Positions 3,174 through 61,785 of a stretch of 64,000 bases of DNA are shown piece by piece. The notes beneath the pieces are model-generated. The model saw only the letters and a list, made by a program, of their open reading frames with translations, did no database searches and was not told the DNA's origin. The first letter of the stretch is position 1. Every line of letters begins with the position of its first letter. The translations under genes were made by a program, and so were the position numbers. Origin of the DNA: Escherichia virus TH38; sequence record MT446410.1; one strand, written 5' to 3'.

Positions 3174-3344
3174 CCTAAGCCCCAAAATATTTAAAGTATA
3201 TATTATATGGTATATTCATATGAATAGGGTGACACTGGCGCCATTATTGTGCAACCAAAAAAGACTACTCTGAAAACGAGGAAAAGATTTTTTCCTGCCT
3301 GAATTAGATACGGAGTTAGCGATATGAAAACCGAACAACTCATG
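3174..3344. repeat. Direct repeat copy B; plasmid/phage junction at about 3340-3345
   Basis: Identity with 1-172 ends at 3344, after which sequence is phage-like. Confidence 0.9.

Positions 3345-44735: not shown

Positions 44736-44745
<10 letters not shown>
44134..44745 (-). CDS. Deoxynucleoside monophosphate kinase-like P-loop kinase
   Basis: ILNGPPGCGKDT. Confidence 0.55.
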
Positions 44746-46231
<1,486 letters not shown>

Positions 46232-46232
<1 letters not shown>

Positions 46233-53127: not shown

Positions 53128-53412
53128 TCAACCTCTTGGGAATGGCATCAAAAATTCCACAGCAGATTTAATTTCATTATTGATTCTTGAATCACGATAA
53201 GAGATAAACTTACCTTTGCTATCACGTAACATCACATTAGTTCTGGCTGTTTTGTGAGGGAGTAATGTGACACTAGTTGGAATAGTATCAATCCCTACAG
53301 CGTATTTGTCAATAGTCTTACTTTCAGCCAACAGATAAGACCAAGTACGCGGTTTCTGCTCCGGGCGGTTAGGGTATGTGTCCCGAATTTGAACCATAGC
53401 TAACTTATTCAT
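53128..53412 (-). CDS. Small protein, tandem paralog 2 of 2 (TARTNV.LR...GKFISY...PFP.G family)
   Basis: Shared motifs with the 53414-53668 ORF. Confidence 0.5.
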   Translation of the reverse strand: MNKLAMVQIRDTYPNRPEQKPRTWSYLLAESKTIDKYAVGIDTIPTSVTLLPHKTARTNVMLRDSKGKFISYRDSRINNEIKSAVEFLMPFPRG

Positions 53413-53413
53413 A

Positions 53414-53668
53414 TTAAACTCCTTTAGGGAATGGGATGAGATTTTCTACTGCAACACGGAAAGATTTTTCTACGTTCTTATTCTTATAAGAGATAAATTT
53501 TCCATCAGCTCCGCGAAGGAGTACGTTAGTGCGAGCTGTATTTGGGTTTTGTTGAATCATAGAACGAATGATGTTCTCTGAACCTCTATGCTTATTGGTG
53601 AATTTCCAACTGATAGTTTTACCGGTACGAGTTACATCAATAATATTTACAATTTTTACAATAGACAT
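53414..53668 (-). CDS. Small protein, tandem paralog 1 of 2
   Basis: Shared motifs with the 53128-53412 ORF. Confidence 0.5.
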   Translation of the reverse strand: MSIVKIVNIIDVTRTGKTISWKFTNKHRGSENIIRSMIQQNPNTARTNVLLRGADGKFISYKNKNVEKSFRVAVENLIPFPKGV

Positions 53669-56138: not shown

Positions 56139-56795
56139 TTAACTCTCCAAAGTTTTCTTCAGAGCTGCCCACGAGATTGGGTAGAGTTTAGCCATCTCTT
56201 CATCTAGAGATTTAGCAAACACTCGAACTTCATATTGAGCGTGAGAGGAGAGTCGCTGACGGCACAACTCAAACCAGCCATACAAAGAACCAGTCCACAC
56301 CCACTCAGTGATCATCCCCTGAGGAAGAACAAATCGAGCTTGCTCTGGTGCAATAAATTCAATCAACTTGTCATATGCTGCTAGAGAAGCTTCATATGCA
56401 TCATTAATCAACATTAATGCTTCAGCTCGCTCTCCGTCGAGGAGTTGAATCCCTGAACCTGCATGGAGGTCCGAAGGTCTCGCAAAAATCTCTTTAGGGA
56501 TGAAGACTTCAACTGCTCCATCTTTATACCGCCGGGACATTTCGTTCCACGAGAATCCAACCTGATGCTTGCCCAACTGTCTCGCAATTGCGATAGGTGC
56601 TTTGCATCGGAAACTGACTTGCGGGTGTCGGAATGGAGTACAGTGTTTTTCCCGTGCAAGGAAGTTGATAAGTTTTGTGTCTCTCTCATTTAAGTCGCCT
56701 TCTCGAACAACACCGAAAGATACTCTAGCTGCATTGACTACAGATTTGTCACTACCCATTGCTTCAATCAGTGTTGCTTGTAGTTGTTCGTTCAA
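56139..56795 (-). CDS. ThyX-like flavin-dependent thymidylate synthase (divergent motif)
   Basis: HCTPFRH and GKHQVGFSWNEMSRRY resemble the ThyX signatures, with KH in place of RHR. Confidence 0.5.
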   Translation of the reverse strand: MNEQLQATLIEAMGSDKSVVNAARVSFGVVREGDLNERDTKLINFLAREKHCTPFRHPQVSFRCKAPIAIARQLGKHQVGFSWNEMSRRYKDGAVEVFIPKEIFARPSDLHAGSGIQLLDGERAEALMLINDAYEASLAAYDKLIEFIAPEQARFVLPQGMITEWVWTGSLYGWFELCRQRLSSHAQYEVRVFAKSLDEEMAKLYPISWAALKKTLES

Positions 56796-57234
56796 TTAAA
56801 AGTTCCTTTTTTCGATTCATGTAAACTTGATGAGCTTCTTCGGCAGTTCCATACATACCTAGATGTATATCTACTTTATCAATACAAATAACAGCCCTAT
56901 ATCTGATAGTTCCTGATCTGTATTTGACAACCTTAACACCTTGAAGCCCTGTTTCCTTGTTTGATACTCTAGCCCCGAACTGGTTGTGGCAGTTTGTCGA
57001 GGTGTCCACCAATCTCAAGTTCTGTATTGAGTTGTTCTTCTTATTTCTATCGATATGATCTATCTGAGAAGAAGGCCATTCTCCATAATAAAAGAACCAT
57101 GCCACTTTATGAGCTTTGTGTACTTTCCCTTTAAACCGCAGGGTTATGTACTTACTTCGAGTTCCTCCTAATTTCTTACCTTTTCGAAAGAACTCTCCAG
57201 TCTCAGGGATATACTCTAAATCATCGATTACCAT
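56764..57234 (-). CDS. HNH homing endonuclease with AP2-like DNA-binding domain
   Basis: IDHIDRNKKNNSIQNLRL and GVKVVKYRSGTIRYRAVICI. Confidence 0.6.
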   Translation of the reverse strand: MVIDDLEYIPETGEFFRKGKKLGGTRSKYITLRFKGKVHKAHKVAWFFYYGEWPSSQIDHIDRNKKNNSIQNLRLVDTSTNCHNQFGARVSNKETGLQGVKVVKYRSGTIRYRAVICIDKVDIHLGMYGTAEEAHQVYMNRKKELLIERTTTSNTD

Positions 57235-57499
57235 TCAGAGCTGTATCTAAAAATGCTTTCAGGTTTGCTTCAGTCTGCATACCAGAGAGGCTGTAGTGTG
57301 TACCGCTGTTACGGTCAGGCACAACGAAAGCAGGGATACTTCGTACACCATACTTAACAGCTTGTTCACGACCATCACCTTCAAGGATGTTAATCTCTTC
57401 CACTTCTACATCAAACTCCTTAACAACCTTCTCAAAGGTAGGAGCCATTGCTTTACATGGAGCACACTGATCGCTATAAAACTTAATTACTTTAGACAT
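57221..57499 (-). CDS. Thioredoxin
   Basis: CAPC active site, 92 aa. Confidence 0.7.
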   Translation of the reverse strand: MSKVIKFYSDQCAPCKAMAPTFEKVVKEFDVEVEEINILEGDGREQAVKYGVRSIPAFVVPDRNSGTHYSLSGMQTEANLKAFLDTALNGNR

Positions 57500-57517
57500 G
57501 TAAATCCTTATGCAGTC

Positions 57518-57687
57518 AAGAGGTGAAGCAGGAACGGGATAACAACAGCTACGATAACCATGATAGTTGATGCTGTTTGAATCTCACCTTTCTTATCAGG
57601 AGTTTCTTCAATAAGCTTACCAGAAGCCCAATAAATACCACCACCAATAAAGATAGCCCAAATACCCCATACGATTGCTGATAACAT
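57518..57687 (-). CDS. Small two-TM membrane protein (56 aa) missing from the ORF track
   Basis: ATG with AAGGA RBS; MLSAIVWGIWAIFIGGGIYWASGKLIEETPDKKGEIQTASTIMVIVAVVIPFLLHLLTA. Confidence 0.4.
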
Positions 57688-57747
57688 ATATCTATATCCT
57701 TATAAATAAGTTCTCCCCACCTCGGGTTAGGAGACAGGGCGGAGGTT

Positions 57748-58359
57748 TTAGTAAGACACATCACCACTTGAATGGGACATGTTGCTCTTGACGAAGTAGC
57801 AATACTTGCCAAGACCTTCATTAATTTCTTGAAGCATACTCTGATCGACAGGGTAGGTGGCTAAATCACCATCAAACTCATCCATCTTCTCAATAATACA
57901 CATCAAGGTCATGCACATATCAGAGAGCATACCGTCCATGTCTAGATCAGCATTACCCTCTGAGAACCAAGCATGGGAGAGATAATTAGCTGCTGTAGCA
58001 TCCACTTTAACGCAGTGGTAACGCATACGTTCAGCAATACGATCTCCTACCTGTCGTGCGTAATCTTCCAGCTCATCAAACATACCATGAACACCCTGAA
58101 ATCCTGCACCAGAGACGTTCCAGTGGTAGTTTTTAGCTTTGATATGCAATAGTTCCATGTTAGCTTGTAAGCAGCTCAGGATGTGTTCTAGGCTGTTTCC
58201 ACTAATCATACCTTGCATTGTTTCAAGGCGAGAGATTGATAGGTCGGACCGGTCTAACATGCTATAACTATCACGACCAATCTCAGGTAAATCAAAAACA
58301 TTCTTATGCATTTGGGTTTTCTCCATCAAGTTCAACTGAGTTAGCAACGTTACGTGCAA
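57748..58359 (-). CDS. Dps-like ferritin (DNA-binding ferritin-like protein)
   Basis: NYHWNVSGAGFQGVHGMFDEL matches the Dps ferroxidase-site signature. Confidence 0.55.
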   Translation of the reverse strand: MHVTLLTQLNLMEKTQMHKNVFDLPEIGRDSYSMLDRSDLSISRLETMQGMISGNSLEHILSCLQANMELLHIKAKNYHWNVSGAGFQGVHGMFDELEDYARQVGDRIAERMRYHCVKVDATAANYLSHAWFSEGNADLDMDGMLSDMCMTLMCIIEKMDEFDGDLATYPVDQSMLQEINEGLGKYCYFVKSNMSHSSGDVSY

Positions 58360-58633
58360 TATTATCCATTACCTGCTGGGTAATTACGATGCAGTTCTGT
58401 GGGTCTACTGACTTAGAACGCCCCATTTCAGGGTCATACACCTTAACTCGCTTAGCAGTTGAGCCTGTAACCTGAAGAACCTTCAACAGATATCCCTGAT
58501 TACCAATAGACCAAGCAACAACATCACGATTCTTGATAAAGCGACCAAGCATATCACGATGATAAAACTGTTGCATCACCTTGGATTTTGTAATCTCTTC
58601 AGTGGGCGGGGCCACTTTACTCAAATCTAACAT
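58304..58633 (-). CDS. Hypothetical protein (109 aa)
   Basis: ORF. Confidence 0.4.
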   Translation of the reverse strand: MLDLSKVAPPTEEITKSKVMQQFYHRDMLGRFIKNRDVVAWSIGNQGYLLKVLQVTGSTAKRVKVYDPEMGRSKSVDPQNCIVITQQVMDNIARNVANSVELDGENPNA

Positions 58634-58705
58634 AACTCTCTCCTGTAAAATACAAATTCTTATTGTACTCTATATACATTTGAGAGTTATCATATCTACT
58701 ACCAA

Positions 58706-58915
58706 TCAGTAGTAAATTACTTTAGACATAAAAGAACCAGTGTTAGGGTCTTCATACCAGCGATGTATGTCAGCGCTTTTTACTATTGTGCCCAGAGTCT
58801 TCAACTGTTTCTTAGCAATACGAGCCTCTTTGCGAGTGTCAAACAATTTGATGTTATCTTTTCTCATGTGTTGCTCAAGATCCCAAACAACATGAATAGC
58901 CCACATCTTTTTCAT
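58706..58915 (-). CDS. Small basic protein, tandem paralog 3 of 3 (C-terminal ...KVIYY)
   Basis: Shares the TR..AR..KK ... SKV.YY pattern with its two neighbours. Confidence 0.5.
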   Translation of the reverse strand: MKKMWAIHVVWDLEQHMRKDNIKLFDTRKEARIAKKQLKTLGTIVKSADIHRWYEDPNTGSFMSKVIYY

Positions 58916-59124
58916 TAGTAATGTACCTTTCCGCTGATATAAACACGACCAGAAGAATACTCCTTGGCCTTATGAATACTGATGCTCTTAGTTAAGTCTA
59001 CATTGAACATAGACTTTTTAAAATCTCGAGCCTGTTGACGAGTGGGTAGTGCAGTCATAGTCATACCACCTGATGCCCACTTAATCTTTGCTAACCAAAA
59101 TTGTCTCATAGTGATCGGTCTCAT
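58915..59124 (-). CDS. Small basic protein, tandem paralog 2 of 3 (C-terminal ...KVHY)
   Basis: 1-nt start/stop overlaps with neighbours. Confidence 0.5.
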   Translation of the reverse strand: MRPITMRQFWLAKIKWASGGMTMTALPTRQQARDFKKSMFNVDLTKSISIHKAKEYSSGRVYISGKVHY

Positions 59125-59321
59125 TAATAATAAACCTTACTGTTAACACAAAAAGCACCTTCACTATTCACGATAGCTTTTCCTAGTGTAACCTTATTAA
59201 GTCTAAAAGTAGATTTGTATTGATTTTTGACCCTACGTGCGTGCTCTCGAGTCTTAACAAAATCTACAGCTACTAACTCTCCAGTCGTGTTATCATGTAC
59301 ACGAACAATCCACTTTTTCAT
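59124..59321 (-). CDS. Small basic protein, tandem paralog 1 of 3 (C-terminal ...KVYY)
   Basis: As above. Confidence 0.5.
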   Translation of the reverse strand: MKKWIVRVHDNTTGELVAVDFVKTREHARRVKNQYKSTFRLNKVTLGKAIVNSEGAFCVNSKVYY

Positions 59322-59855
59322 TTACACACCTTTAGATGCAACTACACCTTCAGAGTTATTATAACGACCCTTCACTGCATAGGAGTGCTCCCCTGCATGA
59401 GAGTGCTCAAACATAACCATCTGACCAACACGCATACCAGCACGAACTCGTAAGCTATGATGCTTGGTTACGTTATGGAATTCAAATGTCAGCTTACTGC
59501 TATTAAACCCTGCGTCTGCCCACCCAGCGTGGAGATGGTTCAAACCACAACGAGCCATAGATGAACGCAGAACAAACAGACTTGAGATGTTATCTGGAAG
59601 ATTAAACTCCTCCATAGAGTGAGCCAAGAAGAACTGACCCGGAGTGATAACCAAACCCTCTTCAGGAATCTTTACTTCCTTCCACTGAAGATTCTCTTTC
59701 GCATCAATATCAACGATGCCATCAGCCTGTTCTTCAACAAGGATAGTATCACCAATACGGATATCCACACTAGCAGCGTTAACATACTTATGCTCCGCAT
59801 CCAGATAGCCATTGTCAATTACATCGTGCAGTTCAACACTTCCTAGTAAACTCAT
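59322..59855 (-). CDS. dCTP deaminase / dUTPase-superfamily enzyme
   Basis: ASVDIRIGD, ITPGQFFLA and RSSMARCGL...HAGWADAGF motifs. Confidence 0.55.
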   Translation of the reverse strand: MSLLGSVELHDVIDNGYLDAEHKYVNAASVDIRIGDTILVEEQADGIVDIDAKENLQWKEVKIPEEGLVITPGQFFLAHSMEEFNLPDNISSLFVLRSSMARCGLNHLHAGWADAGFNSSKLTFEFHNVTKHHSLRVRAGMRVGQMVMFEHSHAGEHSYAVKGRYNNSEGVVASKGV

Positions 59856-59864
59856 TCTTATTCC

Positions 59865-61226
59865 TTAGTTGTTTGTTTCCATGTCAAAAGAGATTCCACG
59901 ACCCGCTTCATCGGCAAACCGAACTGTGCGGGTTTGAGGTTCTAATACTTCAGGGTTGTTAGCAACAAAGCGGTCAGCGAGATTTCGACTGATGGTCTCA
60001 GCAAGTTCCTCATGAGAAGGAACATCAAGACTACCTGCCACATCTTGGGCCACACCTTCATCAGTCCACACAGCCCTAACAGGTGCGTTGATATCACCAA
60101 CAGCAAAACCCTGACCAGAGAACTGACGTGCGCTAACAGTTAAACCATTTGGACGACCACGAGAAGGACTAGCCATCCATCTCTCCATAGAATCACTTGT
60201 AATACCAAGAGCTTCTTCAAAAGATGTTCTACGAGTAGGGCTTACTCTTCGTGACTCTTGTGCTCGGCGCATTGCAGGGGCTACAAACACCCCTTCAATT
60301 GCATTGTGCCGATTAGGTTCATCTTCTCGACCAAGGAGATCTCCTCCTGTATTAGTTGTTAAGTTTGTCAACCCTTCAGACCAATATGCACGAATCTGGC
60401 TAGAGCCATGAATGCTTGACATTAACTGAATCTCTTCATAAGGGATTCCAAAGAATCGACTCATGTCTCGGTTAACACAATATTGAGCACTTGTTGTATC
60501 CTCAATAAGAGAAACCTGACCTAATCCATTAACCAGATGACTAACCGGCTGGGGTGTGGGAAGATATCGAGTTTGGGCCATGTATTGATGTGCAACTGCT
60601 GGAGAGGAAAATCTCAATACTTGCGAGTTAGGCCACTTCTTGTGAACGTATCTGATTTCACGACTAGAAACAACCACTGGACAGGGGGCGGTCATAGCCA
60701 AATACCCATGAGAAGTCATGAATAAATTGTCAAGAGTCATCGCACCACGACACATCATAGGAAAATTATCCAATACCTCTTCAATAGAAGTAGGATAATT
60801 AAACATGAATTGGATACGAACCCCATTCCACTGAAACTCAATAATATCAGTGAATGTTAATTGAGAACCCCCAGCATAGGATTCGTTCGTAGCTTCAGCA
60901 AGAAGGGATGCATACTCGATATCTTGTGACTCTAGCCATTCCTTCACATTACTTTCAATCTCTCTTCCAAGAGCTTGCCAACGGTCAGTTGGGATGGATA
61001 TGTTTTGAGTTCTTGGTGTTTGTCCTCTGACAATAAAGATATCAATGTCATGTGGAGCTGTGTTATTAAGCACAGCATCTCGAACAGCCCCACCAGTAAT
61101 GATGGGACAGATACCGTCTGGAATTAAGTTGTTATTAATCAATTGCTCAATGAAGTGACGACCAACAGTGATATCAGGTTGTTGAGAAACCTTATCTTCA
61201 ATTTGGTTAATCGGGATAACAATCAT
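59865..61226 (-). CDS. Pol-beta superfamily nucleotidyltransferase (tRNA CCA-adding / poly(A) polymerase head-like) with about 330-aa extension
   Basis: ITGGAVRDAVLNNTAPHDIDIF; start taken at the ATG one nt after the exonuclease stop. Confidence 0.5.
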   Translation of the reverse strand: MIVIPINQIEDKVSQQPDITVGRHFIEQLINNNLIPDGICPIITGGAVRDAVLNNTAPHDIDIFIVRGQTPRTQNISIPTDRWQALGREIESNVKEWLESQDIEYASLLAEATNESYAGGSQLTFTDIIEFQWNGVRIQFMFNYPTSIEEVLDNFPMMCRGAMTLDNLFMTSHGYLAMTAPCPVVVSSREIRYVHKKWPNSQVLRFSSPAVAHQYMAQTRYLPTPQPVSHLVNGLGQVSLIEDTTSAQYCVNRDMSRFFGIPYEEIQLMSSIHGSSQIRAYWSEGLTNLTTNTGGDLLGREDEPNRHNAIEGVFVAPAMRRAQESRRVSPTRRTSFEEALGITSDSMERWMASPSRGRPNGLTVSARQFSGQGFAVGDINAPVRAVWTDEGVAQDVAGSLDVPSHEELAETISRNLADRFVANNPEVLEPQTRTVRFADEAGRGISFDMETNN

Positions 61227-61227
61227 T

Positions 61228-61785
61228 TTACATTTTCCAATATAATGAAGGTGGGTCGTAAGGGTCGAATCCTGTGAGTTCACACAAGTATTTATAAACC
61301 TTAACGGTTAAGTTAACGTCCTGTTCACAATAAGTAAACATATCTTCAGTGAAAGCATCCCATGCTTCCTCTTGCTCACCGTAATCTCCTTTAAGTTCCT
61401 CTAAGAACTCACCCCACTGCTTCAAGCCATGACCTCTTGGGCCATGTCTAGGGTCGCCTTTCGGATACTCAGGACTGTCACCAATACGGTCAGGTTTAAG
61501 ATATCGACTAAGACATAGAGTGTCAAAGACGTTAAAATGATATTTAATCAAAGAAGGATACATCTTCTTCAGAGCAGGTAAGTCGAAGTCAATAATGTTA
61601 TGACCAACGAGCACATCAGCTTCTGTAAGTTTACGAATCCCGTCTTCAATTTGGTGAGGCCGATAGCCCCACCTTTCACCAGTTTCAACATTGAAGATGT
61701 AAATACACCATACTTTAGTTATGTCATCGTACAGTGCATTACTCTCGATATCGAATGCAAACACTTTCTTCTTTTTCTTTACCAC
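61228..61785 (-). CDS. Stand-alone DEDDy 3'-5' exonuclease domain protein
   Basis: FDIES (Exo I), HNIIDFD (Exo II), YCEQD (Exo III). Confidence 0.6.

Follow-up and report, generated by a model that had tools for sequence, protein, structure and literature searches.

A probable thymidylate-supply module of phiEco32-like phages and its ThyX enzyme of the [K/R]-H-x type

The window analysed here, i.e. the whole stretch of 64,000 nucleotides (nt) from sequence record MT446410.1 (Escherichia virus TH38), holds part of a phage genome of about 77 kilobases (kb). A minus-strand gene block that includes positions 56139-59855 harbors a nucleotide-metabolism locus, with genes for a flavin-dependent thymidylate synthase (thyX), a thioredoxin (trx) and a deoxycytidine triphosphate (dCTP) deaminase (dcd). 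We regard it as very probable (roughly 0.85) that this locus is a conserved thymidylate-supply module of the phiEco32-like Kuravirus, the activities and the direction of flux being those we infer. An initial annotation of the same DNA had also read these genes as a nucleotide-metabolism module, and had gone on to propose that the ThyX-like protein, with Lys-His where the canonical Arg-His-Arg (RHR) motif is expected, may have an altered substrate or chemistry, base modification of the phage DNA being a possibility. The module is borne out by the present analysis; the two proposals drawn from the motif are not.

The window DNA matches phiEco32-like phages (Kuravirus, Gordonclarkvirinae; YW01, SU10, phiEco32) at 95-98% nucleotide identity, and about 100 kuravirus records match the nucleotide-metabolism locus overall. 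The deaminase, thioredoxin, HNH endonuclease and ThyX genes were all found where the initial annotation had placed them; they lie on the minus strand and are supported by profiles, and both ThyX and the deaminase pass their equivalog cutoffs. The annotation of phiEco32 lists, for this locus, gp64 (thymidylate synthase), gp65 (thioredoxin), gp67 ('member of the Dps family'), gp72 (dCTP deaminase) and gp73 (nucleotidyltransferase), and the gene order is shared with the window, running from thyX through trx, a small membrane protein, the Dps-like gene and unknowns to dcd and the nucleotidyltransferase, followed by the DNA polymerase exonuclease and the primase/helicase. The gp64 product and the window ThyX are both 218 amino acids (aa) long and both carry Lys-His-Gln (KHQ). 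The nucleotide-metabolism genes of the window are hence already known and annotated in kuraviruses.

The window ThyX and its subfamily

Concerning the family assignment, the thyX product is, as judged from its sequence and its modelled fold, a bona fide member of the ThyX family, and it is predicted to form deoxythymidine monophosphate (dTMP). It matches Pfam Thy1 (PF02511) with an E-value of 3.2e-43 and 148.2 bits (cutoff 24.8), the match extending over positions 1-190 of the 191-position profile, and clears the TIGR02170 equivalog with 129.3 bits against a cutoff of 87.9. A phmmer search of the PDB retrieves the ThyX of Thermus thermophilus (4.7e-31) and that of Thermotoga maritima (4e-24). 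The AlphaFold model, computed with 28 homologues as input, has a predicted local distance difference test score (pLDDT) of 93.6 and a predicted template modelling score (pTM) of 0.87; its top 50 Foldseek matches in the PDB are all ThyX, with template modelling (TM) scores of 0.77-0.82 and E-values of about 1e-17, those of the T. maritima ThyX structures (including 1o26) lying at 0.78-0.82. The gene starts with a TTG codon at 56795, preceded by an AGGA Shine-Dalgarno sequence 8 nt upstream, as read from the sequence, and phiEco32 has ATG at the same codon. It should be noted that PHROG 28804, a 91-aa 'thymidylate synthase', matches 56139-56414 only, that is, the C-terminal part of ThyX (residues 128-218), and the size of this PHROG suggests that thyX has been split or mis-called in some phage genomes.

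The textbook motif of the family, RHRX7-8S, is not literally present in this protein, which reads K76-H77-Q78-X8-S87. The initial annotation was right in this respect, both translation and alignment placing Lys-His at the site of the canonical RHR: in phmmer alignments K76-H77-Q78 falls on R78-H79-R80 of T. maritima ThyX and on the RHR of T. thermophilus ThyX. The His, the Ser and the spacing are retained and both Arg are replaced, while the loop before the conserved Ser is one residue longer than in T. maritima ThyX, the additional residue standing ahead of the S83 equivalent, and the resulting 8 residues lying inside the RHRX7-8S range. Apart from these differences in motif and loop, T. maritima ThyX (TM0449; PDB 1o26) has the same fold (TM about 0.8), 31-33% identity and nine substrate-binding or catalytic residues in common with the window enzyme.

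A residue map on the T. maritima enzyme shows equivalents of H53 (H51 in the window ThyX), R74/Q75 (R72/Q73), N85/E86 (N84/E85), S88 (S87), R90/Y91 (R89/Y90), E144 (E151), R147 (R154), R174 (R181) and Q180 (Q187). The nine residues known to bind deoxyuridine monophosphate (dUMP) or to act in catalysis, namely H53, Q75, E86, S88, R90, Y91, E144, R147 and R174, are therefore all retained, and N163 and R165 are replaced by Ser and Tyr. The active-site alignment, which the initial annotation had proposed as a check, is thus standard as far as the dUMP-binding and catalytic residues are concerned and departs from the norm in the absence of the literal RHR.

The motif is shared widely. The pattern KHQxGFxWNExS[RM]RY occurs in 119 of the 120 closest ThyX homologues (53-90% identity). 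For a more diverse set we took the best 150 of 344 representatives with E-values below 1e-30 from a library clustered at 50%, which display 38-62% identity to the query; here the triplet is KHQ in 68, KHK in 15, RHT in 9, RHQ in 6, KHT in 5 and RHR in 1. In a joint alignment of 243 sequences, including 124 representatives of the subfamily, position 78 (T. maritima numbering) is Lys in 99 of the 124 and Arg in 24, and position 80 is Gln in 69, Lys in 14, Thr in 14, His in 7, Val in 5 and Arg in 4. The equivalents of H53, Q75, E86, S88, R90, Y91, E144, R147, R174 and Q180 are each conserved in 120-124 of the 124. Less conserved are R74 (109/124) and the N85 position, occupied by Asn in 87 and by Ser in 37. 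As far as these alignments tell, [K/R]-H-x is the hallmark of a large, mostly viral ThyX subfamily with a one-residue longer loop, and Lys or Arg at 78 together with free variation at 80 fits a conserved charge at the former position and a dispensable side chain at the latter. A decaying thyX, or a pseudogene, was considered and ruled out by the conservation across the subfamily.

Intein-like insertions that end in VHN|S or VHN|C sit inside the ThyX motif loop of four homologues (P0122, P0134, P0197 and P0258), which are 350-640 aa long. Inteins placed exactly in the ThyX motif are typical for functionally critical sites.

Members of the subfamily are also found in cellular genomes. A scan with one genome per prokaryotic species yielded about 50 assemblies with a thyX of the KHQ type. 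Two syntenic loci, one on a Spirochaetia chromosome of 1.79 Mb (L006) and the other in a metagenome-assembled genome (L005), have thyX flanked by citrate synthase and by three genes of pyrimidine biosynthesis, encoding dihydroorotate dehydrogenase, orotidine monophosphate decarboxylase/phosphoribosyltransferase and aspartate carbamoyltransferase (pyrD, pyrF/E and pyrB); a search seeded with the spirochaete ThyX found closest relatives that are 60-66% identical. A SAR202 Chloroflexota (L011) has the gene after pyruvate dehydrogenase E1 and E2, and in a member of the Nitrospinota (L016) it adjoins ispH and an AcrB pump. Two further candidates (L027 and L030) were set aside for their prophage-like contexts, as was a Prochlorococcus sp. 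AG-402-I21 contig (L046), where an open reading frame (ORF) resembling T4 gp32 adjoins the KHQ-type thyX and which is probably a fragment of a T4-like cyanophage. That thyX stands within a cluster for pyrimidine biosynthesis favors our prediction that enzymes of the KHQ type would act as ordinary thymidylate synthases.

Hence, the altered substrate or chemistry that the initial annotation had read from the motif is not supported, KHQ being the rule in the nearest homologues, the substrate-binding and catalytic residues being retained and cellular members standing in housekeeping contexts.

Proposed pathway and alternative readings

In the proposed pathway, the deaminase would convert dCTP directly to dUMP, if it is bifunctional, or else to deoxyuridine triphosphate (dUTP), which host Dut would then hydrolyze. 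ThyX would turn dUMP into dTMP with methylene-tetrahydrofolate, flavin adenine dinucleotide (FAD) and reduced nicotinamide adenine dinucleotide (phosphate), NAD(P)H. The nucleotide pool would thereby be shifted toward T, for a genome of about 42% guanine-plus-cytosine (GC) content in a host of about 51% (the phage part of the window has about 41-42%); a module converting dC to dT would make sense because the phage GC lies below that of E. coli. The thioredoxin would be an accessory redox protein, possibly serving the ribonucleotide reductase of the host or the DNA polymerase of the phage, and an HNH gene found between trx and thyX would be a selfish homing endonuclease that landed in their spacer.

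The deaminase shows the expected Ser/Arg/Asp/Glu catalytic blocks, its RSSMAR, WADAGF and LTFEFHN aligning with RSSVGR, WVDPGF and ITLELFN of 4xjc. Its PDB matches are 4xjc (6.2e-15), 2qxx (6.6e-14), E. coli Dcd (7e-8) and the bifunctional enzyme of Methanocaldococcus jannaschii (3.6e-7), with scores that do not separate the monofunctional from the dUMP-forming (DCD-DUT) class. The two best, named in the PDB only 'deoxycytidine triphosphate deaminase', are presumably bifunctional enzymes that form dUMP and so destroy dUTP.

Several points weigh against the thymidylate-supply reading. The PDB copy searched holds no structure of the KHQ subfamily, the best matches being RHR enzymes of 31-33% identity, and no biochemical characterisation of a KHQ-type enzyme was found in the literature available. 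The Tyr at the R165 equivalent replaces a ligand of the FAD phosphate in some ThyX, a position where T. thermophilus ThyX has His. One review lists Arg78 and Arg80 of T. maritima ThyX among the residues that hydrogen-bond dUMP (PMC3498832), so that their loss could alter nucleotide binding. Finally, the Gordonclarkvirinae are reported to show a striking resistance to restriction-modification systems, with neither a modification nor an inhibitor pathway known (BASEL, PMC11990801), and EcoRV, which we turn to below, also cuts SP8 DNA fully substituted with 5-hydroxymethyldeoxyuridine (5hmdU) (PMC7653180).

Among the alternatives, it is possible, if rather doubtful, that the KHx subfamily makes dTMP but handles flavin or reductant differently, with a looser or differently anchored FAD or with another electron donor. 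The RHR residues are hydrogen-bonded to the phosphates and the ribityl chain of FAD, the first Arg touching the isoalloxazine ring (PMC6514825), and on the residue map R78 to Lys, R80 to Gln, R165 to Tyr and the one-residue loop insertion cluster on this FAD phosphate/ribityl site. The hypervariability of position 80 and the lack of a subfamily structure in the PDB copy searched also leave room for such a difference. Part of the pattern is nevertheless normal family variation, since T. thermophilus ThyX, with its canonical RHR, is also devoid of Arg at 165; for this reason R165-to-Tyr as a second lost FAD ligand was given little weight. Different flavin handling is compatible with the thymidylate-supply reading and refines it.

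Far less probable is a neofunctionalised KHQ-type ThyX that releases, e.g., 5-hydroxymethyl-dUMP, water instead of the flavin hydride quenching the exocyclic-methylene intermediate. It is just as improbable that this product feeds a thymidine-derived DNA modification which explains the restriction resistance of Gordonclarkvirinae. In its broad form, in which ThyX, the deaminase and the nucleotidyltransferase feed a pyrimidine modification and ThyX makes, in place of dTMP, another product such as 5-hydroxymethyl-dUMP, we hold the idea to be highly unlikely as well; if true, it would account for the broad restriction-modification resistance of these phages. An exocyclic methylene intermediate does occur in ThyX chemistry (PMC8989533), and both Arg of the textbook motif are replaced. 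The BASEL restriction panel, in which the resistance was found, includes EcoRV, and no modification or inhibitor pathway behind this resistance is known (PMC11990801). Since EcoRV, EcoKI and EcoP1 sites are numerous in the window, the resistance does not come from a lack of sites.

DNA of the kuravirus SR02, whose ThyX is 96.8% identical to that of the window, gives an EcoRV fragment pattern in vitro (PMC11997193), and the termini of phiEco32 were mapped through restriction profiling and subcloning (PMC9965538). Since EcoRV cleaves SP8 DNA as well, the SR02 digest is by itself compatible with 5hmdU DNA. Taken together, EcoRV resistance in vivo and cleavage in vitro point to a mechanism other than base modification.

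The genes, too, speak against a thymidine modification made by ThyX. The same motif occurs in cellular thyX of housekeeping context and in hundreds of diverse phage lineages, and the uracil-binding, phosphate-binding and catalytic residues are all kept. The known thymidine hypermodification pathways described in PMC8989533 begin with a ThyA-family hydroxymethylase and not with ThyX. ThyA-family dUMP/dCMP hydroxymethyltransferases (SPO1, T4, ViI, M6) are likewise encoded by phages and transfer one-carbon units to pyrimidine C5 in the nucleotide pool, but they are unrelated in fold and mechanism to the flavin-dependent ThyX of the window. Among about 20 ORFs scanned in the window, i.e. those of the locus and ten of the replication module at 42.7-52.7 kb, there is no ThyA-family dUMP hydroxymethyltransferase, no 5-hmdU kinase or transferase, and hence no hypermodification gene of these kinds.

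Site statistics, computed over window positions 2601-64000 against a first-order Markov expectation, show that CCWGG (6 observed versus 81 expected), GATC (114 versus 238), BamHI (1 versus 10) and EcoRI (9 versus 21) sites are underrepresented and that PstI, NcoI and SacI sites are all absent, with 10-17 expected. EcoRV sites (34 versus 16) and CAGCAG (82 versus 34) are overrepresented. Such strong avoidance of several type II sites suggests that the phage DNA has historically been exposed to restriction, and the avoidance of T-containing sites speaks against a blanket protective modification of T.

Site avoidance, EcoRV cleavage in vitro and a canonical-looking dTMP pathway point away from thymidine modification, and nothing links ThyX to the DNA modification that remains conceivable in these phages in view of their in vivo restriction resistance; for the resistance of Gordonclarkvirinae, an anti-restriction mechanism based on protein, or a feature of another kind, is suggested instead. 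The base modification that the initial annotation had entertained on account of the motif is thus not supported, the motif being the norm of the subfamily and kuravirus DNA being cut in vitro.

The most improbable reading is that dT is replaced by deoxyuridine (dU) as in PBS1, the deaminase supplying dUTP and ThyX being irrelevant or inactive; the BASEL authors speculated on it, as the simplest possibility, from the dCTP deaminase and the adjacent nucleotidyltransferase (PMC11990801). It is disfavored because thyX is under strong purifying selection, its motif and catalytic residues not varying among 119 homologues with identities as low as 53%, which would be counterproductive for a dU genome, and because a conserved, apparently intact thyX in all relatives examined does not agree with a suppression of dTMP synthesis of the PBS1 type. 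Nor was an inhibitor of uracil-DNA glycosylase seen among the ORFs scanned, and the nearest solved relatives of the deaminase, 4xjc and 2qxx, are those that we take to form dUMP and destroy dUTP.

The HNH gene and the remaining features

The coordinates of all features are collected in Table 1.

Table 1. Features of the nucleotide-metabolism locus, in window coordinates.
Feature	Position	Strand	Support
thyX, flavin-dependent thymidylate synthase, 218 aa	56139..56795	-	Pfam Thy1, TIGR02170, PDB phmmer, AlphaFold
K76-H77-Q78, site of the canonical ThyX RHR motif	56562..56570	-	Translation; map to T. maritima R78-H79-R80
Predicted free-standing HNH homing endonuclease gene, between trx and thyX	56764..57234	-	Pfam HNH_3 1.6e-13, PHROG 99
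Thioredoxin-fold protein, 92 aa, C-A-P-C active site	57221..57499	-	Pfam Thioredoxin 2.3e-13
Hydrophobic protein, 59 aa, membrane	57508..57687	-	PHROG 9296 3.6e-34, function unknown
Dps/ferritin-like DNA-binding protein	57748..58311	-	Pfam Ferritin 2.9e-07, PHROG 3636 3.1e-55
109-aa protein	58304..58633	-	PHROG 10984 1.9e-64, function unknown
Three small tandem paralogous genes (69, 69 and 65 aa)	58706..59321	-	Alignment
dCTP deaminase, 177 aa	59322..59855	-	Pfam DCD 3.5e-34; TIGR02274 107.7 bits versus cutoff 92.8
Pol-beta-type nucleotidyltransferase, 472 aa, GGAVRD...DIDIF	59865..61283	-	PHROG 12715 1.2e-260; weak Pfam PolyA_pol head 0.0025

The HNH gene overlaps both of its neighbours, as had been noticed in the initial annotation: its 3' end runs into thyX, the last 32 nt (56764-56795) being shared, and its first 14 nt (57221-57234) overlap the end of trx. 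An alignment places the insertion exactly at the junction of the trx stop with the thyX start in phiEco32, which has no HNH gene there and shows a 15-nt spacer and an ATG start of thyX. The window, YW01, FH3, myPSH2311 and ES17 differ from phiEco32 in the presence of this 471-nt gene, and the insertion turns the thyX start codon from ATG into TTG. HNH DNA was found in only 5 phage records (YW01, FH3, myPSH2311 and ES17 twice) of about 100 kuravirus records.

Homing endonuclease insertions are described in the otherwise syntenic kuravirus locus (BASEL, PMC11990801). Free-standing HNH homing endonucleases (intronless homing) are likewise small HNH_3 ORFs between conserved genes in a minority of collinear genomes, and the same features are seen here, i.e. 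an HNH domain, sporadic presence, a fixed intergenic site and collinear genomes. Since the insertion is clean and is present in 5 of about 100 records, the HNH gene is best taken as a free-standing homing endonuclease, a sporadic insertion and not a component of the pathway, with both cleavage and mobility predicted.

The thioredoxin remains below the NCBIfam equivalog cutoffs and is thus divergent. Genes of the interval that the initial annotation had left unmentioned are those of the 59-aa membrane protein, the Dps-like protein and the 109-aa protein, and the three small tandem paralogs. The Dps/ferritin-like ORF spans 57748-58359, and translation probably begins at the ATG from which a product of 187 aa results, as in the phiEco32 annotation. 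The three paralogs are distant (22-25% identity) and have in common W5, a TR..AR..K block and a C-terminal Tyr. The profile searches also place a PhoH-like protein on the right-hand side of thyX in the gene order.

The nucleotidyltransferase adjoins the deaminase and belongs to the same conserved locus, outside 56139-59855. It gave no sequence match in the PDB, and its long C-terminal region has no family match; the BASEL authors flagged it as a possible DNA-modification gene (PMC11990801).

Elsewhere in the window, two adjoining minus-strand ORFs of 94 and 84 aa (53128-53412 and 53414-53668) have a common TARTNV(M/L)LR...GKFISY...PFP(R/K)G block and look like another tandem duplication. The replication module contains, close together on the minus strand, a SLOG/YAcAr-like protein (44736-45128, below the Pfam cutoff) and a Macro-domain protein (45792-46232), which may represent a counter-defence related to nucleotides or ADP-ribose.

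A final observation concerns the beginning of the window. Positions 1-2700, with MobA, Rop and a helix-turn-helix protein, are 100% identical to a 3173-bp cryptic plasmid of E. coli Nissle 1917, which we take to be pMUT1. Similarity to Kuravirus starts only near 3335, and the junction between plasmid and phage lies somewhere before about this position. As its first 2.7 kb are plasmid-identical and Kuravirus similarity begins only from about 3335, the window is, by these matches, a plasmid-phage concatenation or an assembly chimera.

Consequences for the ThyX family

For the annotation of these phages the impact is small, and thyX should keep its name. What is mildly new is only the failure of the textbook RHR motif across a large ThyX subfamily, one that has no representative in the PDB copy searched. 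With RHR in 1 of the 150 representatives, RHRX7-8S does not define the ThyX family as it is sampled today and is not valid as a criterion of membership. The [K/R]-H-x subfamily, for which we found neither a structural nor a biochemical representative, is a sensible target for enzymology.

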